Virus record (IMG/VR): IMGVR_UViG_3300031994_000044 | Coordinates: 32,001 to 96,000 of that record | Source of the DNA: a virus | Taxonomy: Duplodnaviria; Caudoviricetes | Reading direction: 5' to 3' (one strand) | Length of the DNA stretch: 64,000 bases | In this document: piece after piece, positions 76-20,717 of the stretch | Position numbering within the stretch: position 1 is the stretch's first letter | Layout: every line of letters begins with the position of its first letter | Translations under genes and position numbers: made by a program | Notes under the pieces: generated by a model | What the model was told of the DNA's origin: nothing | The model's database searches: none | What the model saw: the letters and a program-made list of their open reading frames with translations, nothing else

Positions 76-87
76 AATTTTATTCTT

Positions 88-897: not shown

Positions 898-909
898 AAT
901 AATTTTATT

Positions 910-2767: not shown

Positions 2768-2822
2768 TGATAATTTTTTATTTAAATTTACAAAAATTTT
2801 ATTAAAAAACAAATTTAACATT

Positions 2823-2852
2823 AAAAAAGGTGGCGAAAAATCGTCACCCTTT
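2823..2852 (-). terminator. intrinsic terminator, family A (GGGTGACGATTTTTCGCCACC + U tract)
   Basis: GC stem with T-run; near-identical to 19399-19428 and related to 17797-17830. Confidence 0.8.
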
Positions 2853-2873
2853 ATTTTTCATTATCATTATTTA

Positions 2874-3362: not shown

Positions 3363-3395
3363 TATATTATATTATATTATATTTAAAAATTATTC

Positions 3396-3818: not shown

Positions 3819-3833
3819 TGTGATATATTTTTA

Positions 3834-4493: not shown

Positions 4494-4520
4494 GAGTCCG
4501 TTTTAACATTATTATTTTCC

Positions 4521-4528
4521 ATAAATAG
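4521..4528 (-). promoter_or_regulatory. putative late promoter CTATTTAT
   Basis: same 8-mer on the coding strand in ten intergenic regions, mostly before structural genes. Confidence 0.65.
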
Positions 4529-4540
4529 TCGCTAAAAATA

Positions 4541-4571
4541 AAAAAAAAACATACATTTCCATGTATGTTTT
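4541..4571 (-). terminator. intrinsic terminator
   Basis: AAAACATACAT-TTCC-ATGTATGTTTT inverted repeat with long T tract on the minus strand. Confidence 0.7.
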
Positions 4572-4597
4572 GAATAATTGTTTTTCATAAGTTTTTT

Positions 4598-4846
4598 TTA
4601 AGAAAATGAAAATAAATTTTTAATTTTTTCAAAAAATGTTTGTGATTTTTCTTCTTTTTCCACTGTTTTTGCTATTTCTTCTACCTTTTTTGGATTTTGT
4701 GTTTCTTTAAAGTAATTATCAATTTCGGGGCCATATTTTTCCGTTAATTTTTCTTTAAACTCTTTCTTCACAGATTCCATTTCTATTTCAAAAGCCTTTG
4801 AATCAGCTTTTAATTCATTTAATTCTTTATTACTTAGATAATCCAT
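4598..4846 (-). CDS. hypothetical protein
   Basis: 82 aa ORF coupled to the upstream gene. Confidence 0.65.
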   Translation of the reverse strand: MDYLSNKELNELKADSKAFEIEMESVKKEFKEKLTEKYGPEIDNYFKETQNPKKVEEIAKTVEKEEKSQTFFEKIKNLFSFS

Positions 4847-5250
4847 TAGTGCACTTCGATTTCATCTTCATTTGTTATTTGTTCTTGCTGACCGCCGCCT
4901 AAATTTTCAAAAAAACTTTCAATATTATGTATAAACCATACAATGCCTGAAGTAAAACAGCAATCCAATATCAATGCAAGCCACCATAAATTAGTTCCAA
5001 TAAGAAAGATATTGAATGGTGTGAAAGCGACAGATTCAACTAAAAACCAATCAATTAAACTTAAAATCCACCCTAAATTAGCAGGGAAACACATCATACA
5101 ACTAAATAACAATCCAAAATGTTCGGATATTTTATTTGACAAATTCCTGATGTGTTCAAAAATTTTAAAAGGACCGCTACCGAACACCATCATATTGGAT
5201 AATCCATATGCTGCCACACAGTACAAAAATATAATTAAAGAATTACTCAT
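4846..5250 (-). CDS. membrane protein with CxxC (DUF1360-like)
   Basis: three hydrophobic segments; GPFKIFEHIR...LFSCMMC. Confidence 0.6.
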   Translation of the reverse strand: MSNSLIIFLYCVAAYGLSNMMVFGSGPFKIFEHIRNLSNKISEHFGLLFSCMMCFPANLGWILSLIDWFLVESVAFTPFNIFLIGTNLWWLALILDCCFTSGIVWFIHNIESFFENLGGGQQEQITNEDEIEVH

Positions 5251-5704
5251 CTATCGTGCTTTTATCTTCTTTATTTTTTTCTTCTTTTTTTCCTTTTGAT
5301 GTTATCACTTGATTTATTATATCCGATTTTTTTTTATCATATGAAAAAGTCAAAGTTCTTAATTCTTCAATCGAAACCTCTTCATTTCTAAAAAGGGTTT
5401 GCAATTCTGTTACTTTTTTAGTTAAGAGCTGTGCACGTTCTATTGCTTCTTTCATCTTTTCGATATTATAATCAATAGCATCAAATATTTTTTCTTCACC
5501 TATTTCGATATCAGCACAAAAATAATACTCATTACCATTCTTGGCAATTGTTATATCATATTTTTTTTCTAAATCATCATCAATAACCCATCCATTGGGA
5601 AATGAAACAATCACATAAACAACTTGTGTGCCATCTTCAGTATTGGTGACTTGCATTCCCTTAAAATATTGGGATATTTTCTTAATTCGGTCTTTAATAT
5701 TCAT
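5243..5704 (-). CDS. hypothetical protein
   Basis: start moved to ATG 5704; promoter-like sequence immediately upstream. Confidence 0.65.
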   Translation of the reverse strand: MNIKDRIKKISQYFKGMQVTNTEDGTQVVYVIVSFPNGWVIDDDLEKKYDITIAKNGNEYYFCADIEIGEEKIFDAIDYNIEKMKEAIERAQLLTKKVTELQTLFRNEEVSIEELRTLTFSYDKKKSDIINQVITSKGKKEEKNKEDKSTIDE

Positions 5705-5753
5705 ATTAAAATAAAATTTACATAAATTTAATTCAAAAAACAATAAAATCAAT

Positions 5754-5779
5754 AAAAAAAGCCGCTTTATTGCGGCTTT
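5754..5779 (-). terminator. intrinsic terminator
   Basis: AAAGCCGC-TTTATT-GCGGCTTT with A tract on the plus side. Confidence 0.8.
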
Positions 5780-5809
5780 GTTGTATTTTTATATCTTTCT
5801 TTTACTGCT

Positions 5810-6502
5810 TTATTCATTATTAAATAAACCCGCCAATACTGAATTATACTTTATCATTATTTTTTGTATTTCCTCACGGCTTGGTATTTGGTCTCTTGAT
5901 GTATAGACAGCGCCGATAACGCCTGAAGGATTATAAGTGCCATACATCATAATAGCGGCCATATATTCAACATCTTCATTCTTTAACCTATAATAAAGTT
6001 CGGGGTCTAAAGTTTCCAAATAGTTAATCGATTCTGCATAAAAGGTTTTTTGGTATAATTCAGTTGCCCATGGATATCTTGATAATCTGACATTTTTATA
6101 TTCACTTTCAAGCCATTGATATGCACTTTTGGGCTCTGCATAGGTTAAATCAACATATAAGAACGGCAAGCCAGCTAAATTACTGCCGCCATTATGCGTT
6201 TCAAGGATATAAACTCTATCGGCTTTTAATTCGCTTTTAAGTTTAACCAAATTTTCTCTAATTGCAGGCTCGTTATTCATACGTTTCATTACTGATTCAG
6301 TATGACGTTCATTTACTATTTTTTCGAATTTTTCAACAAGACCTTCAGGATTAAAGACAAATTCACCTATGACAGATACGACAAAAATCATCATAAGTGT
6401 AATCAAAAGGTTTTGAATACCGATTTTTTTAATGAATCCAAACACTTTTTCAGCCCATGTTAACGTGGTGTTAACTTGTTCAATTTTTTTCTCGTTTTCC
6501 AT
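5810..6502 (-). CDS. single-pass membrane protein with GAF-like domain, possible T4 gpt-like holin
   Basis: one N-proximal hydrophobic helix then LKADRVYILETHNGG alpha/beta domain. Confidence 0.45.
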   Translation of the reverse strand: MENEKKIEQVNTTLTWAEKVFGFIKKIGIQNLLITLMMIFVVSVIGEFVFNPEGLVEKFEKIVNERHTESVMKRMNNEPAIRENLVKLKSELKADRVYILETHNGGSNLAGLPFLYVDLTYAEPKSAYQWLESEYKNVRLSRYPWATELYQKTFYAESINYLETLDPELYYRLKNEDVEYMAAIMMYGTYNPSGVIGAVYTSRDQIPSREEIQKIMIKYNSVLAGLFNNE

Positions 6503-6517
6503 TTTTTTGATTTAACC

Positions 6518-7405
6518 TTATTTTATTATTTTTCTTGCATTTGCCAAGGTTAAATTAAAGTTTTCGCTTTCATTTAGTCTTGAGTCCAATGTTGTTTTTG
6601 AATCTGATGAAGTATAGTTATATAACTTTTTCATTTCTTCAATTGATTCGTTAAAACCTTGTTTATTGGTGTGGCCAATAATATTACCTTTGTTGTTTCT
6701 CCATTCTACAAGGTATTCATTTCCTGTTTTATCTTTCATTTTGAAAGTATTACCTTCATTCTTAAATTCGTCAGGAATACGCGAAAACATATGTTCTTCA
6801 GTCAAAAAAGCAGTCTTTTTAAAATAAACTGTCTTAACATTTTTGGTTTCATTTATTGGTGTTTGATTTTTTTCAAAATTTGCCAATCTGTCAATCATCT
6901 GCCTCATATCATAACCTGATTTGCTTTCATACATCTCATTCTCGCTATAAGGCTTAGGGTTTTCGTCTCTTACTTGAACCTTTGTGAATTTATATTCGTC
7001 TTCAGCCTTGTGAATTTTTTTACCAGAGTCTTTAATGCCATCGTAAATGTTTTCATTATTTGAAAAATCACCCGTTTTTTCAATGCCATTGTTCATTTCC
7101 TGTTCTGATGTATAGCCTTTTACTTGGGCTTTTACTCTTTTTTTGTAATCGTCATTTACATTTTCAGGTGTGTAGTCCAAAGTGGTTTTATTAGCGTCAT
7201 TTTTTTCAAATTTCACTCTTTTGCCACCAATTTCATCTTCAAGGCCTCCATCATAATCTTTGGCTCTTTTTTTAGCCTCACTGTAAGCCTTGCCGTTGAT
7301 TGACTTATTATCCTTTTCAACATTCGGTCCTAAAACAGCCTTAAACTCATTTGAACTTTCAGATATAAGTCTTTTTAACGCTTTAACAGTAATTGTCTTT
7401 TCCAT
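6518..7405 (-). CDS. putative head-associated protein
   Basis: TITVKALKRLISE leader; INE/FNE/LNE sites; SIEEMKKLYNY motif; in a CTATTTAT operon. Confidence 0.5.
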   Translation of the reverse strand: MEKTITVKALKRLISESSNEFKAVLGPNVEKDNKSINGKAYSEAKKRAKDYDGGLEDEIGGKRVKFEKNDANKTTLDYTPENVNDDYKKRVKAQVKGYTSEQEMNNGIEKTGDFSNNENIYDGIKDSGKKIHKAEDEYKFTKVQVRDENPKPYSENEMYESKSGYDMRQMIDRLANFEKNQTPINETKNVKTVYFKKTAFLTEEHMFSRIPDEFKNEGNTFKMKDKTGNEYLVEWRNNKGNIIGHTNKQGFNESIEEMKKLYNYTSSDSKTTLDSRLNESENFNLTLANARKIIK

Positions 7406-7434
7406 TTTATATCTTTTTATTATATGTTATTAAT

Positions 7435-7559
7435 GTCAACTACCCACGAATAAATTCGTAAGCTTGAGCAAAAGCATTAAGCCTTTGACAAGGCGTGTTG
7501 ACCAACACTCTTATATCATCTGTGGTTATAACCACATTTGACTTACTTTTGCATATTTT
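7435..7559 (-). ncRNA. orphan IS200/IS605 right-end (TnpB omega-RNA-like) structured element
   Basis: ends CAAGCTTACGAATTTATTCGTGGGTAGTTGAC; several hairpins; G-U pairs only on the minus strand; loop GTCA complementary to terminal TGAC. Confidence 0.6.
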
Positions 7560-7760
7560 CTAATATGGATAAAATCCACCTCTTATTTGCCCTATAAAAC
7601 CAGCGTTGAGATTAAAACCTAAACACATTTGCTGCATTAAAAGTTTTTCTCTTTCTTCTGGATTTTTTTCTTTTTTTAATTTTTCATTTACATTTTTAAT
7701 TTCATTCAATACTTTTGAATCAAATCCGTTGTTAAATCTATCGGGATATGTATACATCAC
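7560..7760 (-). CDS. small hypothetical protein
   Basis: 66 aa ORF overlapping the upstream stop; TAG stop. Confidence 0.55.
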   Translation of the reverse strand: MMYTYPDRFNNGFDSKVLNEIKNVNEKLKKEKNPEEREKLLMQQMCLGFNLNAGFIGQIRGGFYPY

Positions 7761-8857
7761 TCTTTTTCTCCATTAAAACTTTTTTTCATGATATCTTTAT
7801 GGTCCATTGCTTCACCATAAAAATCGTCATCGCCTTGCAATGGTACATCATATTGATAATTTCCAGCACTACTTGTTGCAGTTGCTTCTTTTATGTAATC
7901 AATTTGTTCTTGTGTTAAATATAAACTTTTTCTCTTTATTGGTTTACCAAATAAAGGTGTTGTATATTGTCCACTACTTTGCGCATTTGTAGCACCCGCA
8001 ACGCCATCCATTGCTCCACCACCAATGGCACCACCTTCTCCGTCTTCATTTATCGCCCTGAATTTATCTTTTTGTCCATAGGTATCAGCCCCATTATTGA
8101 ATTTCATCGGTTCATTACTTGTGCCGTTCATAATATCTTTTTGATATTTAAGTAATGATACTTCTTTAAATATCTTTTTTATACTTGATTTAATCTTTTT
8201 GGGCTCATCCCACACAGAAGTAAAATTTTCATTAGTATATAGCATATTTAATGCATTTTCGACTAAATTTATTGCATACGTGTAATTGTCAGTTAGTTGG
8301 ATTTCATCATCTTTATATTTTTTTAAAAAATCAACTAAAACCCCTACATGTGCCCATAAATTATCAGCGTCCATATTTCCGTTGCCATACAATAAATTTG
8401 AAACTTTAGAACATAGTACATTAAGTGAAATTTTTGCAAATTCACTTTGAAAATCAAGTGCAGAATCATTATCTAGAATATCATATCCCCAAGCACCCTC
8501 TGTTAAATTTAAATTTTCATTTATTATGTTTTGTTCAAATAAATTAATATAAAGATTTCTTAATTTTTTCTTAAAGTCTTTTCTCGGTATTTTATAACTT
8601 ATTTCAAAAGTGTCTTTATTGCGTTTTCCGTTCTCGTCATAGCCATTGTCCTTGATTCTTTCTTTTCTAATCATAATGGCGCTATATTCATCATTCGGGT
8701 CAGTTCTTTTAATAAGCATTTTAACTGCCGTTGGACCATCTATGCCAAATCCATGCAAAAAATCATCTGTATCCGCTTGTAGGGGATTTCTCAATAATTG
8801 CTTCATGTAATCTTTCATATGCTCCATAAAAGCATATCTTGTCATTTCTTTGTCCAT
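7757..8857 (-). CDS. putative head-associated polyprotein with internal DUF4259-like domain
   Basis: LTE|GAWGYDILDNDSALDF; INE|DGEGG...ATNAQSSGQYTTP; IKE|ATATSSAGNYQYDVP. Confidence 0.55.
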   Translation of the reverse strand: MDKEMTRYAFMEHMKDYMKQLLRNPLQADTDDFLHGFGIDGPTAVKMLIKRTDPNDEYSAIMIRKERIKDNGYDENGKRNKDTFEISYKIPRKDFKKKLRNLYINLFEQNIINENLNLTEGAWGYDILDNDSALDFQSEFAKISLNVLCSKVSNLLYGNGNMDADNLWAHVGVLVDFLKKYKDDEIQLTDNYTYAINLVENALNMLYTNENFTSVWDEPKKIKSSIKKIFKEVSLLKYQKDIMNGTSNEPMKFNNGADTYGQKDKFRAINEDGEGGAIGGGAMDGVAGATNAQSSGQYTTPLFGKPIKRKSLYLTQEQIDYIKEATATSSAGNYQYDVPLQGDDDFYGEAMDHKDIMKKSFNGEKE

Positions 8858-8859
8858 AA

Positions 8860-9108
8860 TTATCCTCGTTTTATTTCATCTTCATAAAAATTACGGCGTT
8901 GCCATAATGTCTTAAATAATGTATTCACTGATGCAGCGACAATTGTGCGCACCTTCTTCTCCAAATCTTTCTTAACACTACTGTCATTTTTCAGCACATT
9001 TTTAACAATAGCAACAATCTCGCTATTGCTCAACCCGCTTTCCTCCAATAACTGTTCTGCTATCAGATTTCGCATCATTTGTTCGCTTATTATAACTTTT
9101 TTTGCCAT
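8860..9108 (-). CDS. small putative head protein
   Basis: KKVIISEQMMRNLIAE leader; first gene after CTATTTAT at 9131. Confidence 0.55.
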   Translation of the reverse strand: MAKKVIISEQMMRNLIAEQLLEESGLSNSEIVAIVKNVLKNDSSVKKDLEKKVRTIVAASVNTLFKTLWQRRNFYEDEIKRG

Positions 9109-9130
9109 ATTAATGCATATTTATTCACTT

Positions 9131-9138
9131 ATAAATAG
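9131..9138 (-). promoter_or_regulatory. putative late promoter CTATTTAT
   Basis: conserved 8-mer 22 nt upstream of ATG 9108. Confidence 0.65.
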
Positions 9139-9150
9139 TTAGAAAAAAAT

Positions 9151-9179
9151 AAAAAGTCGGCCTGTTTAAAACCGACTTT
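9151..9179 (-). terminator. intrinsic terminator
   Basis: AAAGTCGG...CCGACTTT inverted repeat. Confidence 0.7.
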
Positions 9180-9201
9180 AATACAATGACCACAAAAATG
9201 A

Positions 9202-9723
9202 TTAATCTTCTTTGATGTGTTTCGCCATTTGTTCAAGTGTTGAAGATTCCATATTCCATTGTTCTTTCCAATTTTGATAAAATCCATGTAATTTATTGAG
9301 GATTTCAAGATTTTTATCATTAAGAATAAGGCCATTTGTAGTTAAGAAACAGCCATCACCAGTATTGGTTCTTAATTTAAATTGGAATTTAAGATTGTTC
9401 AAACATGGAATTACACCACTGAATATTAGATTATTTTCATTAGGCATATAAATCAATGGTGATTCGCTGACACTGTTTTCGTTTGGTTTTGAAAACTGTG
9501 CACCACTTTCAACAGATGTCCTAAATTGCTGTATTTGGTTTGTTAAAGTGTTTTGTCCAAATATAGGGTCATCTGTTATAGCAATACCGTCAGCAGCCGT
9601 CTTATCATTTCTTTCCTGCTCTTCTTTGAGTATTCTTTTCTTGTTGATACTTGCTTCTTCCAATGTTCTTAATTTGTCAAGTATTTGTCTTGTATAATCA
9701 ATATTTTCAACTTTTTTTGCCAT
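9202..9723 (-). CDS. hypothetical protein, possibly head-associated
   Basis: TRQILDKLR...KRILKE leader followed by a globular domain. Confidence 0.6.
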   Translation of the reverse strand: MAKKVENIDYTRQILDKLRTLEEASINKKRILKEEQERNDKTAADGIAITDDPIFGQNTLTNQIQQFRTSVESGAQFSKPNENSVSESPLIYMPNENNLIFSGVIPCLNNLKFQFKLRTNTGDGCFLTTNGLILNDKNLEILNKLHGFYQNWKEQWNMESSTLEQMAKHIKED

Positions 9724-9725
9724 AA

Positions 9726-10211
9726 TTAAAAATCATATCCCATTCCATTCCACCAAGAAGTAATGTTACCTATATTATTTCTGTTGGCTTTGATTATTTT
9801 TTCAACATCTTTTTTTAGTTTTTCTGTACGCTTTATTTCATCTTCAATAATTTTTTTGGCGTTTTCAGGATGTTGCTCTATTTTTTTATTAAATTCTTTT
9901 TGTGCATTTTCAAAATCGTTGATTTTATCAGAAATTTCTTTTAAACCTTCCATTGCTGTTTGGTCTAATTGATTTTGTTCTTCTTCAACTGTGTCGTTAA
10001 TGTTAACATCAACTTGATTAATAGCGGTTTCTACATCATTAACATTTACATCAATATCGGAAATATCTTGTACTACTCCGTTTTTTTCTATTTCTTCTAT
10101 TTTTTGTTCTATTTGTTCTTGCATGATAGCAAGTTTTTCAGCCTCTTTTGTATCTTTTTTTGCCTTTTTGGTTTTTGGCTCAGCCGTCTCGTTCTTATTT
10201 TGTTTTGCCAT
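9726..10211 (-). CDS. hypothetical coiled-coil protein
   Basis: 161 aa, charged helical sequence, C-terminal WWNG. Confidence 0.65.
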   Translation of the reverse strand: MAKQNKNETAEPKTKKAKKDTKEAEKLAIMQEQIEQKIEEIEKNGVVQDISDIDVNVNDVETAINQVDVNINDTVEEEQNQLDQTAMEGLKEISDKINDFENAQKEFNKKIEQHPENAKKIIEDEIKRTEKLKKDVEKIIKANRNNIGNITSWWNGMGYDF

Positions 10212-10228
10212 GTTTAATAATTTTAATA

Positions 10229-10256
10229 AATATAAGTTTTATTAAAAAATTGTCAA
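10229..10256 (-). promoter_or_regulatory. putative early/middle promoter TTGACA-N16-TATATT
   Basis: same architecture at 15946-15974, 18831-18859, 53463-53491 and 57385-57412. Confidence 0.6.
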
Positions 10257-10266
10257 GAACAAATGA

Positions 10267-10671
10267 TTATCCAATAGTTCTTTTCCTAATTCTATCGTTT
10301 TTTTGCTTTTCCTGTCTAATGTTTTCTTTAAGTATTCTTTTTACCGTTTCCATGACAATTTGTCTTAATTGACTTTCGTTAATGGTAATTTTATTGGATT
10401 TTTTCCTTTCAATTAAAAAATTTAATTTTTTTGAATTTTCTTTGAAGAAATAGTCAAAGCAACTATCTATTAATTTTTCATTAGTCGCTGGATATTTTTT
10501 CATTAGTATATTTATATATGGTTTGGTTAGGTTAATAATTTCTTCTTTTGTATAAGGTTTCCCTTCGTCTTCTTTACTTCTAACACATGAGCCAATCATT
10601 CTAGTTATTTGTTTAGCTATTTTTGATATCATGTATTTCCCTTTATTGTATTTAAACTCTTCATTTATCAT
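10267..10671 (-). CDS. hypothetical protein with ITINESQLRQIVMETVKRILKE motif
   Basis: single gene between a CTATTTAT motif and the next promoter. Confidence 0.6.
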   Translation of the reverse strand: MINEEFKYNKGKYMISKIAKQITRMIGSCVRSKEDEGKPYTKEEIINLTKPYINILMKKYPATNEKLIDSCFDYFFKENSKKLNFLIERKKSNKITINESQLRQIVMETVKRILKENIRQEKQKNDRIRKRTIG

Positions 10672-10688
10672 AAGACATTATTTTTATA

Positions 10689-10696
10689 ATAAATAG
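10689..10696 (-). promoter_or_regulatory. putative late promoter CTATTTAT
   Basis: conserved 8-mer upstream of ATG 10671. Confidence 0.6.
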
Positions 10697-10706
10697 TATG
10701 GATAAC

Positions 10707-10735
10707 AAAAAAGCACACCTTTTCAGATGTGCTTT
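10707..10735 (-). terminator. intrinsic terminator, family B
   Basis: AAAGCACATCT-GAAA-AGGTGTGCTTTTTT on the minus strand; near-identical to 39887-39915. Confidence 0.8.
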
Positions 10736-10742
10736 AAATACT

Positions 10743-11492
10743 TTAGGCATTGTAAAATCTAACATTCCCTTCTTCATCTTCGTATATTACCAAAAAGGTA
10801 AATATGGCTTCAATATTATCTATTGTCGTTTTATGAAGATGCAATTCGTCTAAATCCATAAAATATTTTATTGCCAATTCTTTTATATTAAACATCAACC
10901 TAAGACGGTCTTCTCCTGAAACGTTTTTTGTGTCATTATTTGAAACATGTATTAAAAACAAACGATTATTAATTGAATATCTTCCTTTTTTATTTTTAAA
11001 GCCACTTTGTCTTTTATACATATTTTCTCCAAGTGTTTGAAAATCTTCATATGTTACTTCATTTTTAATAATTTTTTGTTTTAAGATAAAATCATCTTTA
11101 AATACTCTTGAAGATTTCAAGTCGAATTTAATGTTATGGGAAATAAAATCCCATCCTTTGGCTTTGCTAATCGGATTTGGTGACGCTCCATATTTTTGGA
11201 ATAGTAATTCATCAATTTGGCTAAATTTTACGACTAAACAACGTCTTGTTAAATATTTTGCGATTTCTTTTGCTTTTTCGGTGCCTTTTAAATTATTATC
11301 ATTAATGACTTTGATTAATCCTTTTTTAAGGCCATCATAAGTATTTATCTGAAAAACATCCAATAATGAATCATATGCTTCATTTTGTACTTCGCACCAT
11401 GGAAGTTGACCGTTATCTTTAGAAATAATACCATCAAATATTTTCTCAATGATTTCTTTACATCTGTTGATTTGACTTTCTAAGTCTAACAT
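10743..11492 (-). CDS. putative PD-(D/E)xK restriction-like endonuclease
   Basis: E...WDF...FDLKS motif; overlaps the methylase stop; start placed at ATG 11492. Confidence 0.5.
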   Translation of the reverse strand: MLDLESQINRCKEIIEKIFDGIISKDNGQLPWCEVQNEAYDSLLDVFQINTYDGLKKGLIKVINDNNLKGTEKAKEIAKYLTRRCLVVKFSQIDELLFQKYGASPNPISKAKGWDFISHNIKFDLKSSRVFKDDFILKQKIIKNEVTYEDFQTLGENMYKRQSGFKNKKGRYSINNRLFLIHVSNNDTKNVSGEDRLRLMFNIKELAIKYFMDLDELHLHKTTIDNIEAIFTFLVIYEDEEGNVRFYNA

Positions 11493-12423
11493 ACAATCTT
11501 CTGTACTTTTGGGTCCCATTGACAATATTGTCTTGATTACCCAATGGCCCATAATGGTCCAATTGAATCAATTCAAATTGAGATGGGTTATATTTTCCGA
11601 AGAATGAAATGGGAACTCCCATGTATCCATAATAATCGCACGGAATATCTTTCACCTTATCAACATTTATACAGTCTTCGTTAAGACCTGATATAGTTCT
11701 AAAATTATCATAAAAAGGATATGCTTCATTATTTGGCGTTCCGTCCTCGTTATAATAACTTTTCTTGAGTTTTATAAACGGTTTTTCTATATCTAAATGT
11801 AATGTTGTATACCAAACAACACCTGATACACGGATTTTTCCTTCTATATGTTCACCTGCTGTTGCAATATCTTGATAATCAGTAGGTACATCGAACCATC
11901 CTGCAATCCCTTTAAAACCATAATCAACAATAACACCATCGTCTTTAAGATGTGCAAAAACATCTTTACAAGAAATTGAATTTTGCTGACCAATGATTAA
12001 GAAATCTTTTTTCATTTCAATAAGTCCATTCAAAAAATCATTAAACAAACTAAAAGGCGGATTTGTGACTATAATATCGCTTAAAGAGGCTATCAGTCTA
12101 TAGCCGGATTTCATTATATCAACTTTTTCTATGACATTGCCATAACTATTAAGACTTACGGGTAATGTGTCTTTACCATTATAATAAGCAGCTTCTGTGT
12201 CAATAGAACTGTAAAATAATCCCTTTAATTTAAATTTTTCAAAATTATCAATAAAATATTGTACGAATTTCGAATTTCTATTGTCACAAGGGCAATAAAC
12301 CGTTTTTCCCTCAAATGCATGGAAAAATTTGTCACATTCGCTTTTTACATCTTCATATTGTGTGTAAAATTCGTCGTTTTTTTCTTTTCTTGCTTTAGTT
12401 AAATAATTGTTCTTTAATGCCAT
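11458..12423 (-). CDS. adenine-specific DNA methyltransferase, EcoRI family
   Basis: KNDEFYTQY, VYCPCD, DIIVTNPPFSLF, YMGVPISF motifs. Confidence 0.88.
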   Translation of the reverse strand: MALKNNYLTKARKEKNDEFYTQYEDVKSECDKFFHAFEGKTVYCPCDNRNSKFVQYFIDNFEKFKLKGLFYSSIDTEAAYYNGKDTLPVSLNSYGNVIEKVDIMKSGYRLIASLSDIIVTNPPFSLFNDFLNGLIEMKKDFLIIGQQNSISCKDVFAHLKDDGVIVDYGFKGIAGWFDVPTDYQDIATAGEHIEGKIRVSGVVWYTTLHLDIEKPFIKLKKSYYNEDGTPNNEAYPFYDNFRTISGLNEDCINVDKVKDIPCDYYGYMGVPISFFGKYNPSQFELIQLDHYGPLGNQDNIVNGTQKYRRLYVRLRKSNQQM

Positions 12424-12424
12424 G

Positions 12425-13129
12425 TTATTTTAATATTTCTGAAGTTATTGAATTTTTGAGAGCTTCTGTACGTAATTTCTTTAAAGCGCCTTCTTTTATT
12501 TGTCTTACTCTCTCTTTCGTTAATCCTAAATCCTTGCCGATTTCTTCTAAAGTTTTTTCTTTTTTCGAGTTAAAGCCAAAATAATTTGAAATAATTTTTT
12601 TCTCCCTTTCAGTTAACACATCCATTAATCGGCTTATAATTGACGCATCGTCATACATGTTTTCAAAATTATTTTCTTCAATGTATTCTTCAGGTGTTAT
12701 TTCGTTTTTATCAGAATCATAATCGTTTGCGCCAAAACTTTCAGAAGACAACTCTTCACCATTTATCAGATTTCGTTTCTTTAATGCCTCTAATATTGTT
12801 TGCCTAATCCACCATACGGAATAACTTATTGTTTTATAACCCATTTTATGGTCGAACTTATCTATTGCCTTTATCAATCCAATATTACCTTCAGCAATTA
12901 AATCAGAATAAGAAAGTCCCATACCAATATAAGGTTTCGCTACTGAAGCAACAAATTTTAAATTTGATTTAATAATTTTATCTCGTGCGGTCAAATCATT
13001 TTCTTTTTTATATTTTTCCCATAAAGAAAACTCTTCTTCCCTCGATAATGGTGATAACTTATTCAATTCTTTAAAATAGTCGAATGCACTTCGGTCAAAA
13101 TTTTCGACTGTTTTTTTTCTTTTACGCAT
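12425..13129 (-). CDS. phage-encoded sigma-70 family (RpoD-like) RNA polymerase sigma factor
   Basis: region 2 SNLKFVASVAK, DLIAEGNIGLIKA, YSVWWIRQ; region 4 TLEEIG...LTKERVRQI. Confidence 0.92.
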   Translation of the reverse strand: MRKRKKTVENFDRSAFDYFKELNKLSPLSREEEFSLWEKYKKENDLTARDKIIKSNLKFVASVAKPYIGMGLSYSDLIAEGNIGLIKAIDKFDHKMGYKTISYSVWWIRQTILEALKKRNLINGEELSSESFGANDYDSDKNEITPEEYIEENNFENMYDDASIISRLMDVLTEREKKIISNYFGFNSKKEKTLEEIGKDLGLTKERVRQIKEGALKKLRTEALKNSITSEILK

Positions 13130-13153
13130 TTTTCCATGTTAATTATTTTTAAG

Positions 13154-15511
13154 TTATTTTAATCTTGAAATATTACATTCCTTTATAATTGTTATTGTAT
13201 CAGTATACCAATCTAAATCAATATGGCATATATTTAATACAAAATCATAATATTCAGCAATCTTATCATAAAGTTTTTTCATACTATCATAATTTTCTTT
13301 TGCTACGGCCCCTAAAACTTCATCCAATAATATAAATGGCGGTCTTGATAATTTAGATAGTTTACCAAGAACGACACGCAATGCCAATGATGCTTGCGTT
13401 TTTTCAAGCCCAGAAGCGGCGGAAAGCCTTGTCTTAACATCGTCTCTTATTAGCAAGAAATCAATGTCGTTTTTCTCGTTCATGGTTATTTCAATGTTGA
13501 AATCAGCAACCTCATCAAGAAGTCTATTCAATTCACCGTTAATAATAGGTAATGTATGACGCAAAACCATCTTGCTAATTCCGTCTTTACCTATCATTTG
13601 TAAATAGAGTTTCCAATATTTTTCTGTTTTTCTTTCTTCGTCTATTTTAACTATAAAACTATTTTTTTGTGCAATGGTTTCTGTCGCTCTTGTTATCTCT
13701 TTTTCATTTCTAGTTATTGTGTCGTTTGAGTCTTTTTTGATTTTCTCTTCAGTTTTAATATTGGTGTTAAGAACATTCACCTGAGCGTCTATTTCGCCAT
13801 TTTTAGTTATAGCCTCTTTGCTTTTATTTACTTCAGCAAGCAATTGTGTCTGCTCTTTATACTCCAATCTCATGGAAGTAATATCGGACTTTATTGTTGC
13901 AATTTTTAATTCAAGTTTTGCTTTCTCTTGTGATTGCTTTCTCTTTTCCTCAATATCAGCAAGCAACTTTTCAACCTCGTCAAATCTGTTTTTGGCTGCA
14001 ATACCTTCTTTTGTGAAGATTTCTATATTATTTTTGTTTTCAGCAATAAGACCTGAATTATCAACATTATCCAATTTTCTCTTGCAAGTTGGACAATATT
14101 CGGCTTTCTCTAAATTTGAATTTGTGTCATTTAAATGCTTTATATTGGCCTTTAACTCTGAAATTTTACTTATAAGTTGTGCCTTTTCAGTATTGAGACT
14201 CTTGTATTCTTCTTCCGAATAATCAATATCCTTGTATTTGCTTAATTCATTGGTGAAATATTCAGATTCTTTATTTTTCTTTTTTCCTTCTTCAACAATA
14301 TTTTTTATTTTGGCTTCAAGCGTGGTTACATTGATTTTCAGCAAAGATGGGTCCACCTGTTGTTTTGAAGAAAGCAATATGTCCCTTGTGTTATTGTATT
14401 CAGTTATTTTCTTTTCACACTCGGAAATTATTGCTTTGTTTTTCTCATTTTCATTAAAAAAGTCTGTTTTTGTTTCTTCAAGGGCCTTTATTTCTTCTTC
14501 AAGTTGTACCTTATTATACATGTCAGAATAACGTCCGACAGAAATTTCTTTGTTCCATTTTTCTCTCGCCTTTACATCTTTGTCTTCAATAACAGACAAA
14601 CCAATCCATCGGGCAAGAAGCCTTCCCTTTTCGGTTTCAGTCAATGAAATTAAACTATCAAGGTCCTTTGCATTAGCACTTATAATTAAGTCAAAATCAC
14701 TTTCAGTTCCAAGGGCCTCTTTAATGATTGCACTCGTTTCCTTTGCCGATGCTCCTTGTTGATTTTCGTCAGACAGTAATTCCTCAGTGCCGTCACTAAG
14801 TACCTTGTAATATTCGACCTTATTTGATATGGTTTTTGTCTTTTTACCGTTGGCAGGTCTTGTTAATGTTCTTTTAATAATGTAATCCTCGCCATCAATG
14901 TTTATACATCCTTCAACATTAAGTGTTCTTTCATCAGGCAAATAGTTGTTAAACAATTCGCTAAGAGTTTTAGCCTTATCTGTATTTGTTTTTCCGAACA
15001 GCAAAAAATGTAAAATGTCATAGGCAAATGTAGATTTACCACTTTTATTAGCTGGTTCGCCATTTAAAAGAACTAATCCATGTAATTTTGTAAAATCAAA
15101 AAAGTTATCAGGGCCATAACTTAAAAAGTTGTCCCATTTAACCCACTTAATCACATATGTTTTGGCCTTATTATATAAGGTATAGTCAATAAGAGCGTTT
15201 ATTTGACTGTCAATCTTTATAATCTCATTAAAATCAACATCTTCAATCTTGTTTTCAACAATATATTGTTTCATTAATTCTTGCTGAAATTTTGGCTCAT
15301 TGATATTTTGTATTGAATCAGAAACAAGAGCGTCATTACCACTTGAAGTTATATATTTAGGTTTGACGGTAATATTCTTTGACGGTATACCATACTTGGA
15401 AGCCATCATGGAAATTATACTCTTTTCCAACTCCTTTGAATAGTTTGTCGGTGCAACATTCCACTCAATGCAAACCTTTGCATCTTGACCTATTTCTATT
15501 TTCTTTCCCAT
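13154..15511 (-). CDS. sbcC: SbcC/Rad50 (gp46-like) ATPase with N-terminal extension
   Basis: NFLSYG, Walker A NKSGKST, coiled coil with CPTC zinc hook, ASGLEK signature, ILLDEV Walker B. Confidence 0.9.
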   Translation of the reverse strand: MGKKIEIGQDAKVCIEWNVAPTNYSKELEKSIISMMASKYGIPSKNITVKPKYITSSGNDALVSDSIQNINEPKFQQELMKQYIVENKIEDVDFNEIIKIDSQINALIDYTLYNKAKTYVIKWVKWDNFLSYGPDNFFDFTKLHGLVLLNGEPANKSGKSTFAYDILHFLLFGKTNTDKAKTLSELFNNYLPDERTLNVEGCINIDGEDYIIKRTLTRPANGKKTKTISNKVEYYKVLSDGTEELLSDENQQGASAKETSAIIKEALGTESDFDLIISANAKDLDSLISLTETEKGRLLARWIGLSVIEDKDVKAREKWNKEISVGRYSDMYNKVQLEEEIKALEETKTDFFNENEKNKAIISECEKKITEYNNTRDILLSSKQQVDPSLLKINVTTLEAKIKNIVEEGKKKNKESEYFTNELSKYKDIDYSEEEYKSLNTEKAQLISKISELKANIKHLNDTNSNLEKAEYCPTCKRKLDNVDNSGLIAENKNNIEIFTKEGIAAKNRFDEVEKLLADIEEKRKQSQEKAKLELKIATIKSDITSMRLEYKEQTQLLAEVNKSKEAITKNGEIDAQVNVLNTNIKTEEKIKKDSNDTITRNEKEITRATETIAQKNSFIVKIDEERKTEKYWKLYLQMIGKDGISKMVLRHTLPIINGELNRLLDEVADFNIEITMNEKNDIDFLLIRDDVKTRLSAASGLEKTQASLALRVVLGKLSKLSRPPFILLDEVLGAVAKENYDSMKKLYDKIAEYYDFVLNICHIDLDWYTDTITIIKECNISRLK

Positions 15512-16024: not shown

Positions 16025-16822
16025 ATGGAAAAAAATGAATATATATACCCAAGAACAATACTTGGACTTGATGTAAGTACAACTTGCATCGGCGTGTGCG
16101 TTGTTAAAGACAATGGTGATGCAGATAAGCCTGAATTACTGTATATCGGCCATATAACACCAAAAATATCAAGAAAAGTAAAAGGCATTGAATCTTTGTT
16201 TCTGAAAAAACAAATTTTTGAAACAGAATTTCTACCTAATATCTTAGAAAAATATAAAATAACCGATGTTATTATAGAAGAACCCTTATTATCTTCAAAT
16301 AATGTAAATACCGTTGCAACATTGCTTAGGTTTAACGGTATGATTTCAGAATCAATATACAAATTACTTTCTATTGTTCCAAATTTTATTTCCTCATATG
16401 ATGCAAGACTCTATTCTTTCCCCGAATTGGTGTCTGTTAGGAAATACAACAAAAAAGGTGAAGAATATCCTTTAAAACACATTAAAAAGGCAATTGAAGA
16501 TAATAAAGCGGTCTTATTTGGCGCATATCCTTTTGATGTTGATAAGAAAACAGTTATGATGAACATGGTAAATGAAATGTACCATGACGGAGAAATTGAA
16601 TGGCTCTATAACAAAAACGGAGAATTGAAAAAAGAGAATTTCGATGCTTGTGATTCACTCATTTGCGCTTTGGCCTACATAAACATAAACCATCATGGAC
16701 TTGAAGCAGTTAAAATTGACAATGTATCTTATTCAGAAACTTCGGAAAATAAAACAAAAATTGATTATGTTACCAAAATTTGGGATAAAATATATAATAA
16801 AACTATAATACTTGAAAACTGA
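16025..16822 (+). CDS. RuvC-like Holliday junction resolvase
   Basis: ILGLDVSTTCIG, IIEEP, DACDSLICA RNase H-fold acidic motifs. Confidence 0.75.
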   Translation: MEKNEYIYPRTILGLDVSTTCIGVCVVKDNGDADKPELLYIGHITPKISRKVKGIESLFLKKQIFETEFLPNILEKYKITDVIIEEPLLSSNNVNTVATLLRFNGMISESIYKLLSIVPNFISSYDARLYSFPELVSVRKYNKKGEEYPLKHIKKAIEDNKAVLFGAYPFDVDKKTVMMNMVNEMYHDGEIEWLYNKNGELKKENFDACDSLICALAYININHHGLEAVKIDNVSYSETSENKTKIDYVTKIWDKIYNKTIILEN

Positions 16823-16880
16823 CATACTCCCACGATTGAAATCGTGGGGTTCTTAACTTTTGGCAATTATATACCAGTTA
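16820..16880 (-). mobile_element. minimal IS200/IS605 right-end remnant (TnpB-type terminal hairpin)
   Basis: GAACCCCACGATTTCAATCGTGGGAGTATGTCA matches the typical end pattern; no transposase or TnpB ORF. Confidence 0.6.
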
Positions 16881-16883
16881 ACA

Positions 16884-16915
16884 CAAATATACAATTTTTT
16901 CTTGAAAATTCCAAA
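16884..16915 (-). promoter_or_regulatory. Bacteroidota housekeeping-type promoter TTTG-N20-TATATTTG
   Basis: exact fit to the -33 TTTG / -7 TAnnTTTG consensus; points at the IS-end hairpin, not at an ORF. Confidence 0.55.
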
Positions 16916-16922
16916 CCTGCCA

Positions 16923-16930
16923 CTATTTAT
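16923..16930 (+). promoter_or_regulatory. putative late promoter CTATTTAT
   Basis: the motif flips strand together with the plus-strand gene at 16966. Confidence 0.7.
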
Positions 16931-16965
16931 TAGAGAGCAATAAAAAGAATATAATAAATAAAAAC

Positions 16966-17760
16966 ATGGCAAGAAATAACCAAAAACTTATCAACTTCCA
17001 CACAAGCGGCAATACAGAAGTGCCGTTGGAATCATTGTTCTACGGCGAAATCGCCGTAAGACACTGTTCAGGCGATTCAGCCGCTGAACTTATTATCAAA
17101 AACTCGGAAAACACAAGCGCTGTTTTCGTTGAAACGGCAAAAATGTGCATCGACTGCGGAACTTGGGACGGCGGAGATTCACACGAATATGTCGACCTTG
17201 GATTGCCTTCGGGTAAAAAATGGGCAACCTGCAATATAGGTGCTGAAAACCCCGAAGATGCAGGTTTGTATTTTCAATGGGGCGACACTCAAGGATATAC
17301 CGCTGCACAGGTAGGTACGGGAAAGATATTTGACTGGGAGCACTACAAATACAGCAACGATGATGGCTCTCAAATGACCAGATACAATTCAACAGATGGA
17401 CTCACTGAATTGTTGCCTGAGGATGATGCTGCGACAGCAAATTGGGGCAGTGAATGGAAGATGCCTACATTGGCTGATATAGAGGAATTGACAACCGAGA
17501 CCACTTATAGTGTTGATACCGTCAATAATGTGTCAGGTATGAGATTCACTGGTAATGGCAATAGTATTTTTGTTCCTTTTGCTGGTGACGCTAACGGCAG
17601 TAATGTCAGTGACGTTGGCAGGGAAGGCTACTGTTGGTCAAGTTCTCTTAGTAGTGGGAGCATTAATAACGCTCATAGTCTTATCAATAATCAGGGGGAT
17701 GCCTTCGCCGACCTCAGCGACCGTTACTTCGGCTTCTGTGTGCGTCCTGTGCGTGTTTAG
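16966..17760 (+). CDS. putative receptor-binding protein with C-type-lectin-fold domain; DGR target candidate
   Basis: HEYVDLGLPSGKKWATCNIGA, WKMPT, CWSSS, RYFGFCVRPV motifs; N-terminus paralogous to 19455-20717; higher GC than neighbours. Confidence 0.8.
   Translation: MARNNQKLINFHTSGNTEVPLESLFYGEIAVRHCSGDSAAELIIKNSENTSAVFVETAKMCIDCGTWDGGDSHEYVDLGLPSGKKWATCNIGAENPEDAGLYFQWGDTQGYTAAQVGTGKIFDWEHYKYSNDDGSQMTRYNSTDGLTELLPEDDAATANWGSEWKMPTLADIEELTTETTYSVDTVNNVSGMRFTGNGNSIFVPFAGDANGSNVSDVGREGYCWSSSLSSGSINNAHSLINNQGDAFADLSDRYFGFCVRPVRV
17581..17760 (+). other. DGR variable-region-like segment
   Basis: only 2 of the last 59 codons end in A; run of NNC codons before GGC TTC TGT GTG CGT CCT. Confidence 0.65.
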
Positions 17761-17796
17761 AACCAATAAAAACAAACAAAAGAACAACTTATAAAA

Positions 17797-17830
17797 ATGG
17801 GGTGACAATAATTTGCCACCCTTTCTTTTT
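17797..17830 (+). terminator. hairpin/terminator, family A variant
   Basis: GGGTGACAA-TAAT-TTGCCACCC followed by a T tract, between convergent genes. Confidence 0.75.
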
Positions 17831-18828
17831 CATGATAAGAAAAAGCTGTTGTTTTTCATTCTTATCTTATATTTAGTTAATCCAGTATACTCAACTAATT
17901 CATCTTCAAGCCGTTTTCTTCTGTCACTCATTTTACTGAAATCACCTATAAAAATTGCTCTCTTTAATTTGTTTTTCTTTGAATATTTTTCAAGAAGATT
18001 GTAAAATCTAATTGCGTCTTCGGGTGTTTTACAAAATATTAGGTCAATATGCCCATAATCTGATTTCATTACCACCTTATTCTTATATGTACAAATCATC
18101 TTGTTTTCATACTCGTCTCTAAAACCATCAAGTAATAGGTTTTGAAACACCCATAAAAATGTTTTCCTATCACTCTTCTTGTCATATCCCCATACCCAAA
18201 ACTTTTCTTCCTTGAAATATCTGAATTTATCCAAAATAATCCATCCTTCGGCATTTGTCTTATGCTCTACCAAAACACCATATTCATTTGATAACATGGA
18301 AGATTCTTTATTCTCGTTTTTTTCAATAAGAATGTATTCGTCTATTGAATTTTTCAAACGATTATTCCCATATGAATTTATTGGAAATATGATATTTTTA
18401 TTGTTTTCCTTTAATTCGTTGAATTTTTCATATGCATCTTTCACATTACGGTATTTGCCCATTAATTTGTTTTGCTTTCCGTTTTTGCAGGATATTATTT
18501 TGTATGCAAATGGCGGGAATGGAGCATATCCTCGCTTTTTGGGCGGTAATTTCTTTTTCTTTTTATATTTCTTTTTCGGCCCTGGTTTTTTTGGACGGCC
18601 AACGGGCCTTTTGTGCTTCTTTTTCTCGGCTTCACGCTCTTTGCGCTTCTTTTCCTTCTCTTTTTCTTTTTGCTTTAATTTTTCCTTTAGTTTTTTTGCC
18701 TTTTTACACCTTTTATAATATTCCTTTAGGCCCTTCTCCCTTTTTTCTTTGATAACACGCTTCCTGTACTCAGAAATCTTTCTGCGTCTCTCTCTTTCCT
18801 TTTCTGATATTTCTAAATTTTCTTCCAT
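17830..18828 (-). CDS. basic putative DNA-binding protein with AT-hook-like motif
   Basis: Lys/Arg-rich N-terminus with KRPVGRPKK; start placed at ATG 18828. Confidence 0.55.
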   Translation of the reverse strand: MEENLEISEKERERRRKISEYRKRVIKEKREKGLKEYYKRCKKAKKLKEKLKQKEKEKEKKRKEREAEKKKHKRPVGRPKKPGPKKKYKKKKKLPPKKRGYAPFPPFAYKIISCKNGKQNKLMGKYRNVKDAYEKFNELKENNKNIIFPINSYGNNRLKNSIDEYILIEKNENKESSMLSNEYGVLVEHKTNAEGWIILDKFRYFKEEKFWVWGYDKKSDRKTFLWVFQNLLLDGFRDEYENKMICTYKNKVVMKSDYGHIDLIFCKTPEDAIRFYNLLEKYSKKNKLKRAIFIGDFSKMSDRRKRLEDELVEYTGLTKYKIRMKNNSFFLS

Positions 18829-18907: not shown

Positions 18908-19396
18908 ATGAAATACACTAAAGCAACTGATGAAACCATGGAAATGGTTAAAGACATTTCAAGCAAATTGGGGCTTGATGTTTATGGAGTGGTATTTGAA
19001 CCAATTTATGTTAAAAAAGCCAAAGAAGTATGTAAGGTTGTTAAAGCAAATGATTTTACACAATATAAAACCAATGAGGATTTATTGGTGTTTGTTGTTT
19101 GTTATGAAGATTTTTTTGAAGGTATTGACCCTATGGGCCATGCATATGCAAGTGAAACTGATAAATATAAAGCACTTAGATTGGCAATGGAACAAGTTTC
19201 TTTTAATCCTGAAAAAGATAAACTAATAATTGGATGTGATTCTGTTGTTTTACCCATAGGGTATTGTTTAGCAAACGAAGACGCTGTTAAATCTGCTTTT
19301 TACAATGCGACTATTTTGTCTAAGATACAGCAAGATAAGAAAGATGAAGAAGAACGAAGAAAAGCGCTTAAAACAAACACAAAGAAAAAGAATTAA
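18908..19396 (+). CDS. hypothetical protein
   Basis: 162 aa ORF with its own promoter-like site and terminator; weak resemblance to phage metallopeptidase-like folds but no HExxH. Confidence 0.65.
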   Translation: MKYTKATDETMEMVKDISSKLGLDVYGVVFEPIYVKKAKEVCKVVKANDFTQYKTNEDLLVFVVCYEDFFEGIDPMGHAYASETDKYKALRLAMEQVSFNPEKDKLIIGCDSVVLPIGYCLANEDAVKSAFYNATILSKIQQDKKDEEERRKALKTNTKKKN

Positions 19397-19398
19397 TT

Positions 19399-19428
19399 AA
19401 AAAAGGGTGGCGAAAATCGTCACCCTTT
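19399..19428. terminator. bidirectional terminator, family A
   Basis: AAAGGGTGGCG-AAAAT-CGTCACCCTTT between convergent genes. Confidence 0.8.
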
Positions 19429-19454
19429 GATTTTTATTAACTTTGGTGTATTGA

Positions 19455-20717
19455 TTACCATTCACCACAGTCAATTACTATTGCACTTAAATCAAGTGTT
19501 GCAGTACCGCCAGTGGTGTAATTAGCAATAACACCGCATTGTGTGGATTGAGTACCAGTTGATGAGGCACCTGTACCTGTTAACTCAAAGCCTTGTAATG
19601 CTTCATTCCACTTTGTTTTATCAGCAGTTGTTACATGGACATTGGTATCACCTATATGTTGTGTTATTGCAGTAGCAGCATCGTTCCAAGTTGTTTTGTC
19701 TGTTGTTGTTACGTGAATTGTAGTATCAGCAGTATGTGCTGTTACTGTTGTATATGCTGCATAACCTGAAGCGGCGTTAGTTCTAATCTCAGCAAGGTCT
19801 GTAATGGCATCTTGTTTACCACTCCATGTTGTTTTGTCTTCAGCTGTTACGTGGATTATGGTATTAGCAGTATGTGCTGTTAATGTATCGTTAATACCTT
19901 GTACAGTACCTGTTGTTGCATAAGTTGCACTTAATGCATCAATCTCACCATTAACATACTCTTTTGTTGCATATGTACTTAAATCAATTGTACCACCAAG
20001 TGCATCCCATCCACTACCGGTCCATGCATAATTGGTTCCCGCTGGTGTATCACCATGTGCTGCAACAACATTCCAAACGTCACCAGTTTTATTATCAGTA
20101 GATGGTAATTCTCCATAAGTGGCTTTTGAACCTTTATATGTATAAACTGTTGAAAGTGTATCATAGACATAATTTGCAATATAACCACTAACAGTATCTG
20201 TATAAGCTGTTGCATCAGTATATGCTTTAGAAGATGCTGTATTCGCATAAGTTACAGCGTTATTATATGCATTGCCAGAACCTGCATTTGCATATTCTAT
20301 TGTTGCATAATTGTATTCTTCAATCTGAGTTTTAACGTCATCTGTTGTTAAGTGTATTGTACTATCACCAGTATGTGCATACAATGCAGTTGCAATATAA
20401 CCACTAACGGTATCTGTATAACCATTTGCGTCTGTTACCGCTTCGGTATAAGCATTAGCAGAAGCACCATTTACATATTCTATGGTAGCATAAGTGCCTG
20501 TTAAGGCTTGTGTAATCATATTAGCAACAGCAGCACTTTCAATAAAAATAGCCTGTGATGCGGATTCATCATTACTACCAGTTTTAATTATCAACTGTGC
20601 GTTACCATCGGCTGAGTGTTTTACAGCAATTTCACCGATTTTCAATTCAGATAATTGGCTTGAGCCAAACTCGGTCGTACCATGATAATTAATTAATTTT
20701 TGCGATTTTCTTGCCAT
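19455..20717 (-). CDS. tail/head fibre protein with His-containing repeats
   Basis: Thr/Ala-rich; four HxxD/NxxxH(V/L)T repeats; YKGS...GDVWNV...WDALGG module; ends IDCGEW. Confidence 0.7.
   Translation of the reverse strand: MARKSQKLINYHGTTEFGSSQLSELKIGEIAVKHSADGNAQLIIKTGSNDESASQAIFIESAAVANMITQALTGTYATIEYVNGASANAYTEAVTDANGYTDTVSGYIATALYAHTGDSTIHLTTDDVKTQIEEYNYATIEYANAGSGNAYNNAVTYANTASSKAYTDATAYTDTVSGYIANYVYDTLSTVYTYKGSKATYGELPSTDNKTGDVWNVVAAHGDTPAGTNYAWTGSGWDALGGTIDLSTYATKEYVNGEIDALSATYATTGTVQGINDTLTAHTANTIIHVTAEDKTTWSGKQDAITDLAEIRTNAASGYAAYTTVTAHTADTTIHVTTTDKTTWNDAATAITQHIGDTNVHVTTADKTKWNEALQGFELTGTGASSTGTQSTQCGVIANYTTGGTATLDLSAIVIDCGEW

Follow-up and report, generated by a model that had tools for sequence, protein, structure and literature searches.

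The DNA analysed here is a stretch of 64,000 nucleotides, referred to below as the window, which corresponds to bases 32001-96000 of the 106,307-bp IMG/VR record IMGVR_UViG_3300031994_000044 (G000) of a tailed phage. Its open reading frame (ORF) at 16966-17760 on the plus strand encodes a putative lectin-tipped plug-in fibre of 264 aa. Diversity-generating retroelements (DGRs) reverse-transcribe a template repeat (TR), misread its adenines and paste the copy over a variable region (VR), leaving scaffold codons that are adenine-free and AAY-type codons that are randomised. Our verdict is that the last 59 codons of the fibre gene (17581-17757) are a DGR-made variable region, orphan in all available DNA. 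The key new evidence is the presence of a reverse transcriptase (RT) and a TR beside homologous lectin genes in two records of the same phage lineage. We infer that the last ~60 residues of the fibre protein were very probably written by past adenine mutagenesis.

Results

A profile scan of IMG/VR showed 131 phage loci with this lectin domain, and an RT was present on seven of the 50 lectin records searched, the other 43 being without one. Proven DGR cassettes were found on G008 (IMGVR_UViG_3300032030_000383, 22.8 kb) and G012 (IMGVR_UViG_3300028888_000454, 27 kb), whose DNA is ~90% identical to that of G006. G006 is a near-complete relative of the window phage (302 kb, 82% complete); its DnaB protein is 87% identical to that of the window phage, and most aligned DNA blocks of the two have 65-78% identity. 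Because a 4.6-kb overlap between G008 and G012 shows 100% identity, they represent one phage with two cassettes. The order in both cassettes is lectin target, an ORF of 190-207 aa, TR and RT, all within 1.3 kb after the target. The VR and TR give a gap-free alignment of 205-208 nt, in which all 25 mismatches of G012 and 26 of the 28 of G008 lie opposite TR adenines, the latter count being read from the printed alignment. In both cassettes the homology ends where the VR reads YAGAACC and the TR reads YAGCACC, and at that very point the window gene has TAGAACC and the lectin loci L005 and L006 have CAGAACC. The two cassette targets share 48-55% amino-acid identity with the window protein, and have 46-48% G+C in genomes of 33-34% G+C. 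The window gene is similar in this respect, with 45.8% G+C over the whole ORF and 51% over the last 59 codons in surroundings of ~30%. An earlier note on this DNA, made from the letters alone, had taken the higher G+C as a sign of recent acquisition; this has to be given up, because the proven DGR targets share the raised G+C, which is a trait of the gene family and not a mark of capture.

The ORF of 190-207 aa between target and TR is conserved in the two cassettes (L166:750-1322 in G008; L168:18104-18727 in G012) and lies in the position usually occupied by Avd in DGRs. It is distinct from Avd (PF05635), matches no Pfam family and may be an undescribed DGR accessory protein. The RT of G012 is a single ORF of 399 aa. 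That of G008 (L166:1684-2884) is spread over two ORFs that overlap (1684-2424 and 2411-2884); the cause is either a frameshift, in which case the RT may be dead, or a fault of the assembly.

The codon usage of the stretch 17581-17757 is that of a variable region. Fifty of its 59 codons are NNY and two end in A (third bases: T 47%, C 37%, G 12%, A 3%), while the means of the G000 genome are 0.53 for a pyrimidine and 0.36 for A at third positions. A recount agreed with the earlier note that only GAA and TCA end in A here, and the run from GCC TTC to GGC TTC that it had pointed out is present, with 11 of 12 codons being NNC. Its wording that mutagenesis leaves NNY codons was loose, since the footprint consists of an absence of adenine outside the mutable sites, third positions included. 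When 23,206 segments of 59 codons were taken from those ORFs of the 106-kb record that are 150 aa or longer, 49 or more NNY codons were reached only within this gene. Because Tyr, Asn, Asp, Cys, Phe and His have NNY codons only, the four-fold-degenerate codons were counted separately. A ends 1 of the 26 such codons in the stretch, as compared to 38% genome-wide (binomial p = 6e-5) and, within the gene itself, to 16 of 56 in the lectin part that precedes the stretch (Fisher p = 0.009). The codon bias exceeds chance and amino-acid composition.

The same depletion is seen in the proven variable regions, in which A ends 3 of 36 four-fold codons (VR12, from G012) and 1 of 29 (VR8, from G008). Among 70 phage lectin loci, the fraction of A-ending codons was 0.00-0.09 in all eight loci with an RT on the record, 0.03 in the window gene and 0.2-0.5 in clearly non-variable homologues; L005 (0.14) and the lectin gene of the 68-kb relative G007 (0.19) are seemingly more decayed than the window gene. 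At its 3' end the stretch has an adenine-free scaffold of 32 nt (17727-17758) that runs into TAGAACC, the whole feature spanning 17727-17764. This boundary is similar to an initiation of mutagenic homing (IMH) site, the sequence at the end of a VR that marks a DGR target. A separate observation concerns G001, a 147-kb relative, in which the only other place with 59-codon segments of at least 49 NNY codons is an Asn/Cys/Phe/Tyr-rich long repeat protein (NCYSN, FGxNC) that is unrelated to lectins and is encoded on the minus strand at ~93.0-94.2 kb of the reverse complement.

The earlier note had named position-biased variation among reads or relatives as a criterion, and among relatives such variation is present at the adenine-templated codons. 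P0003, which like P0006 was compared as a protein, has a different N-terminus and a lectin domain 83% identical to that of the window protein, and the columns that differ between the two amount to ~10-12% over the first 135 domain residues and ~34-37% over the last 60. The differing columns coincide with the AAx codons of TR8 and TR12, the templates of G008 and G012 and not the window gene's own TR (odds ratio 8, p = 4e-4), and also with A at codon position 1 or 2 of these templates (odds ratio 11.9, p = 7e-5). This coincidence holds for L006, L007 and P0006 too. L006 and L007, both in G001, which has three lectin genes, differ by 12 substitutions in 216 aligned bases upstream (only ~5%) and by 35 in 168 in the variable stretch; 24 of these 35 substitutions involve A, their distribution by codon position is 17:11:7, and many codons are altered at positions 1 and 2 together. 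Close relatives also differ by single-codon indels. Each relative protein is a single sequence found on 3-5 contigs, and the 90% cluster contains no VR variants.

The variable stretch and the segment before it are flanked by conserved arms. In the docking module at the N-terminus, the DNA of the window gene and of L006 is 100% identical over ~214 nt (72 aa, 100%), and G000 and G001 share overall only ~65-80% DNA identity over aligned blocks. The 3' arm (17739-17788, 50 nt, plus strand) consists of the VR end and 28 nt past the stop codon and has one mismatch to L006, and the middle between the arms is ~72% identical as estimated from the alignment. In P0006 a scaffold of the window type is combined with a variable stretch of the L006 type. 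Another gene with such arms, G007:C1:50280-50900 (in L032), has the leader MKTNHQMNYYDYGKNLDIQGVMPVIGGG... as in the G012 DGR target and the same downstream hairpin, and ends in a non-lectin C-terminal domain; no TR or RT was found downstream of it. It is another tip swap between conserved arms, with a G9 run at the junction.

A cognate TR would match 17581-17757 except at its own adenines and would end in ...GTGCGTCCTGTGCGTGTTYAGCACC. Neither blastn (E <= 10) nor an adenine-tolerant gapless scan found a TR-like copy in the window or elsewhere in the record of 106,307 bp. The statement of the earlier note that the window has neither template nor RT is true and extends to the entire record, and the search it had suggested, for a copy of 17581-17760 differing only at adenines, found none in the record, the relatives or the collections. 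The gapless scan of G000, G001 and G007 scored A-rich tracts alone. Searches with RVT_1 and Avd, and tblastn with the G012 RT (RT12) and the accessory ORF, gave no match in G000, G001, G006 and G007; neither RT nor Avd is present in G006 and G004, both of which are without lectin genes as well. Pattern scans for the adenine-free 3' scaffold, which is identical between VR and TR in the proven cassettes, were run on IMG/VR, on JGI metagenomes (including the sample of a 164-kb G001-type contig) and on 185,579 GTDB species genomes, and they returned known VRs and chance high-G+C matches and no TR. The candidates L012, L013, L014, L043, L049, L053 and L075 from these scans were individually checked and rejected. 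No TR came from two additional scaffold patterns or from scanning 2 Mb of RT/lectin neighbourhoods in adenine-tolerant mode, a TR with the scaffold was likewise absent from 80 RT neighbourhoods, and no short TR-encoded ORF was found among ~15 billion proteins. TR8 and TR12 were also rejected as templates of the window VR, with an adenine-tolerant match of 0.70 as compared to 0.95-0.99 for cognate pairs.

Judged by synteny, almost the whole of G006 has its counterpart in G000, G001 or G007, the exception being 107-126 kb. This gap is not trivial, because one G012 cassette flanks the equivalent of G006 position 113.5 kb. Any RT would be >49 kb from the gene in one direction and >56 kb in the other, and in IMG/VR no record except G008 and G012 has an RT closer than 58% to RT12. 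Lectins with the footprint (A-ending codons 0.05 and 0.04, respectively) are also present in two complete phage genomes, G018 (101.6 kb, with terminal repeats; L089) and G043 (412.7 kb; L117), and neither genome has an RT or TR, there being no RVT_1 match and no second copy of the stretch.

The fibre protein is composed of two modules. The first ~70 aa (16966-17175, plus strand) form a docking module that ends in IDCGTW and a linker, and this module is common to the ORF at 19455-20717 on the minus strand and to a paralogue outside the window (G000:15873-16673). The remaining part (17176-17757, plus strand) is predicted to be a C-type-lectin-fold domain of the Lcl_C/DUF1566 kind, as indicated by AlphaFold2 (AF2) and VIA-align, and the protein ends in ...CWSSSL...RYFGFCVRPVRV*. 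In the AF2 model, residues 71-264 have a predicted local distance difference test (pLDDT) score >90 and the docking module is of low confidence. VIA-align wide with residues 71-264 matched the C-terminal domains of Bd2740 (Z 8.2) and Legionella Lcl (8q4e, Z 7.9), the DGR variable proteins TaqVP and TvpA (both Z 6.7) and Mtd (Z 6.4), and many (animal) C-type lectin domains (CTLDs) too. A PDB sequence search with the fibre protein gave noise only, and Foldseek against PDB gave no significant match. The modelled structure confirms a C-type-lectin fold for residues 71-264 with the variable residues at the C-terminus, and the earlier note's assignment of a DGR variable region of the C-type-lectin class is upheld by this predicted fold, by homology to proven targets and by the kept boundary motif. 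Pfam PF07603 (Lcl_C, DUF1566) scored 16.5 bits, below the gathering cut-off of 34.9. The domain has >7,500 homologues, mostly Bacteroidales proteins of 40-50% identity, many of which have PF07603, PF26707 or PF09603. The lectin domain is a divergent PF07603 relative below the cut-off, and homologues down to E 1e-83 carry PF07603. The product of ORF 16966-17760 is a putative small receptor-binding fibre whose lectin tip would bind a host ligand.

Genomic context

The record is 29% complete according to CheckV, and ~70% of the phage genome (roughly 250 kb) is unsampled. The window has ~30% G+C and encodes a baseplate wedge protein, a DnaB-type helicase, a UvsX-like recombinase and an anaerobic ribonucleotide reductase. 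The baseplate wedge gene is 22 kb from the lectin fibre gene, and the fibre protein has weak tblastn matches to Lak megaphages of Prevotella. The paralogous fibre at 19455-20717 on the minus strand is 420 aa long, shares the docking module, has DCGEW as a C-terminal motif and is without lectin or variable region; it matches PHROG tail families at E = 4e-6.

A hairpin (GGGTGACAATAATTTGCCACCC) followed by a T run is present at 17800-17832 (hairpin 17800-17821), 39 nt past the stop codon and between convergent genes. The earlier note had listed a downstream hairpin among the DGR features. The hairpin is real, and strong hairpins are found 30-40 nt past the boundary in G012 and L006; such hairpins aid homing in BPP-1 (PMC3240598). 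It belongs, however, to repeat family D5, whose copies at 2820-2868 and 19396-19444 lie beside fibre genes without variable regions, and because the family also follows these non-variable genes and the hairpin has a T-tail, it is not DGR evidence. The interpretation as a DGR cruciform is not supported on these grounds; the hairpin at 17800-17821 is a two-way terminator between convergent genes.

The motif CTATTTAT at 16923-16930 on the plus strand, 36 nt 5' of the start codon, is a candidate promoter element of late or structural genes. It is enriched in the window, with 17 copies as compared to 8.3 expected, and none of 100 shuffles reached 17. Its sites at 16923 and 20756 precede both docking-module fibre genes, the second being 5' of the 420-aa fibre gene on the minus strand, and there are 15 others; the motif is also kept upstream of the G001 orthologue.

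The region of the lectin gene (window 16025-17830 versus G006) is a break of synteny. G000:36.7-48.9 kb is inverted relative to G006:241-251 kb, and neither junction in G006 has a lectin gene; the two docking-module genes of G006 are at 236.5 and 239.6 kb. Another hairpin, CCCACGATTGAAATCGTGGGG, is present at window positions 16831-16851, 3' of a RuvC-like resolvase gene, and its 43-nt context recurs in G001 (109750 and 136998) at 98-100% identity, with five further shorter partial matches. Elsewhere in the window, a 9-nt periodic GGACC-rich array at 46444-46603 lies inside ORF 46019-46951 and gives a collagen-like Gly-X-Y reading on the minus strand, and a 51-nt repeat array at 57911-58203 lies inside ORF 57448-58284.

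Discussion

The earlier note had left the choice between a target diversified in trans by a distant DGR and a captured frozen variant, and we lean to the latter, a frozen orphan. The ~70-aa docking module would anchor the fibre in the tail of a huge myovirus of Bacteroidota from the sheep rumen, with a genome of ~360 kb, and the C-type-lectin tip would bind a host-surface ligand via its last ~60 residues. The variant would have been made in a DGR-bearing member of the lineage, and would then have moved, or remained after loss of the cassette, by homologous recombination, with the 5' docking module on one side and the VR end and 3' flank on the other serving as arms. We hold this frozen state and its route through the conserved arms tentatively, at a little under an even chance. 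The two complete phage genomes with VR-like lectins and no RT count in its favour. Several points weigh against it. Only ~29% of the phage genome is in hand (CheckV), which leaves room for a linked but distant cassette. The footprint is also very fresh, and because A-ending codons make up 36-38% of the genome's codons, a long-frozen VR should have drifted; this freshness points to homing or capture in the recent past. A common binding-surface geometry, instead of mutagenesis, could partly explain why the variable columns match TR adenines. Moreover, the scans of G001 left out bases 1-13,883 of the 164-kb contig Ga0247610_10000068, where a G012-like cassette site is expected by synteny.

The most serious rival is that the gene is an active remote target, which is still being diversified from >49 kb away by its own TR-RT cassette in the unsampled ~250 kb. 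One phage of the lineage does have two cassettes at different sites, one of them beside the equivalent of G006 113.5 kb, within the 107-126 kb gap; the boundary motif and the downstream hairpin are intact in the window gene, and A-ending codons are as rare as in live VRs. Wu et al. also document non-adjacent DGR targets, and they report that avd, TR and brt are functional when a plasmid supplies them in trans (PMC5758913). Against this, no TR with the adenine-free 3' end was found in IMG/VR or JGI, even with the sample of the 164-kb G001-type contig included, none of the 120 best RT clusters has 163,973 or 112,906 as its longest contig, no short TR-like ORF is among the ~15 billion proteins, and RTs closer than 58% to RT12 are confined in IMG/VR to G008 and G012. 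Remote targets at >100 kb from the RT are reported essentially only from non-phage DGRs, with a single exception, and non-adjacent phage targets are nearly all within 50 kb (PMC5758913), whereas the distances here would be >49 kb and >56 kb. We regard an active remote cassette as somewhat doubtful, though a real contender. Less probable still is diversification in trans, in which the TR-RT of a co-infecting related phage, a prophage or the host homes into the gene. The VR-like lectins of the two complete genomes without RT or TR would fit this, as would the YAGAACC boundary common to the VRs of different genes and phages of the lineage and the function of DGR parts from a plasmid (PMC5758913). 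But the TR must match the VR scaffold, and the match of TR8 and TR12 (0.70) is far from the cognate 0.95-0.99; no matching TR was found by the 3'-scaffold pattern in the 185,579 GTDB species genomes or in the 2 Mb of RT/lectin neighbourhoods, and the closest bacterial homologues are only 40-50% identical. We consider this the least probable of the explanations.

It may also be asked whether any DGR was ever involved. Ordinary hypervariable receptor-binding loops could arise from diversifying selection and recombination, and the codon bias would then come from a Tyr/Asn/Asp/Ser/Gly-rich binding site together with a donor of higher G+C. A composition rich in Tyr, Asn, Asp, Cys, Phe and His alone raises NNY, 43 of 50 phage lectin records are without RT, relatives differ by single-codon indels, and no TR was found. 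This explanation does not account for the depletion of A at four-fold codons (1/26, p = 6e-5), which holds also against the upstream part of the gene, for the 32-nt adenine-free scaffold that ends exactly where the proven VR/TR homology stops, or for the double changes at positions 1 and 2 between genes that are only ~5% different upstream; homologues without a VR have 0.2-0.5 A-ending codons, and indels opposite AAC are known DGR products (PMC5758913). An origin without any DGR is therefore improbable to us. A last possibility is that hypermutation in this lineage may be a shared service, in which few genomes have TR-RT cassettes and the tips are spread via the two arms or rewritten in trans during co-infection. 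We think this unlikely, though less so than an origin without a DGR. If it were true, fresh-looking orphan VRs would persist even in complete phage genomes without RT.

Among known systems, the window gene is close to the class 'd' or CLec2 targets, whose VRs overlap DUF1566, DUF823 or Fib_succ_major and which made up 14% of surveyed DGRs (Wu et al. 2018, PMC5758913). Legionella LdtA, a member of this class, likewise has a DUF1566/Lcl_C-like fold, variable last ~60 codons, an invariant ...R..GF.VRPV... end and a GC-rich adenine-free 3' scaffold; the window domain differs in being carried on a phage fibre docking module and not on a lipoprotein signal, and its cognate TR, RT and accessory gene were not found. 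In the G008 and G012 cassettes the VR has the length and register seen in the window gene, its boundary likewise reads YAGAACC, a hairpin follows after 30-40 nt and the G+C is raised as well, but their targets adjoin the accessory ORF, TR and RT, and the window gene is templated by neither of their TRs. The lectin genes of G001 belong to the same family with the same docking module, their paralogue differences are VR-confined, and they too are without RT or TR. BPP-1 Mtd (1yu0, Z 6.4) and TvpA (2y3c, Z 6.7), one of the remote targets of the Treponema denticola DGR, also have a receptor-binding tip of C-type-lectin fold; in BPP-1, unlike here, the Mtd gene is adjacent to the cassette. The C-terminal domain of Bdellovibrio Bd2740 (8oks), a lectin-like fibre tip, is the best structural match (root-mean-square deviation 2.9 over 99 residues), but with 12% identity and no DGR the resemblance is one of fold only.

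DGR surveys locate targets by their proximity to an RT, and Roux et al. 2021 (PMC8144416) note that their method misses remote targets. Our results indicate that the codon footprint, the boundary motif and homology to proven targets of the lineage make it possible to recognise a variable region in the absence of its template, and that orphan tips are not rare among phage lectin genes. If these tips are still being rewritten, the host-range evolution of huge phages would depend on distant elements or on those of other genomes. Frozen orphan tips would instead record the gain and loss of DGRs and the modular exchange of receptor-binding tips.

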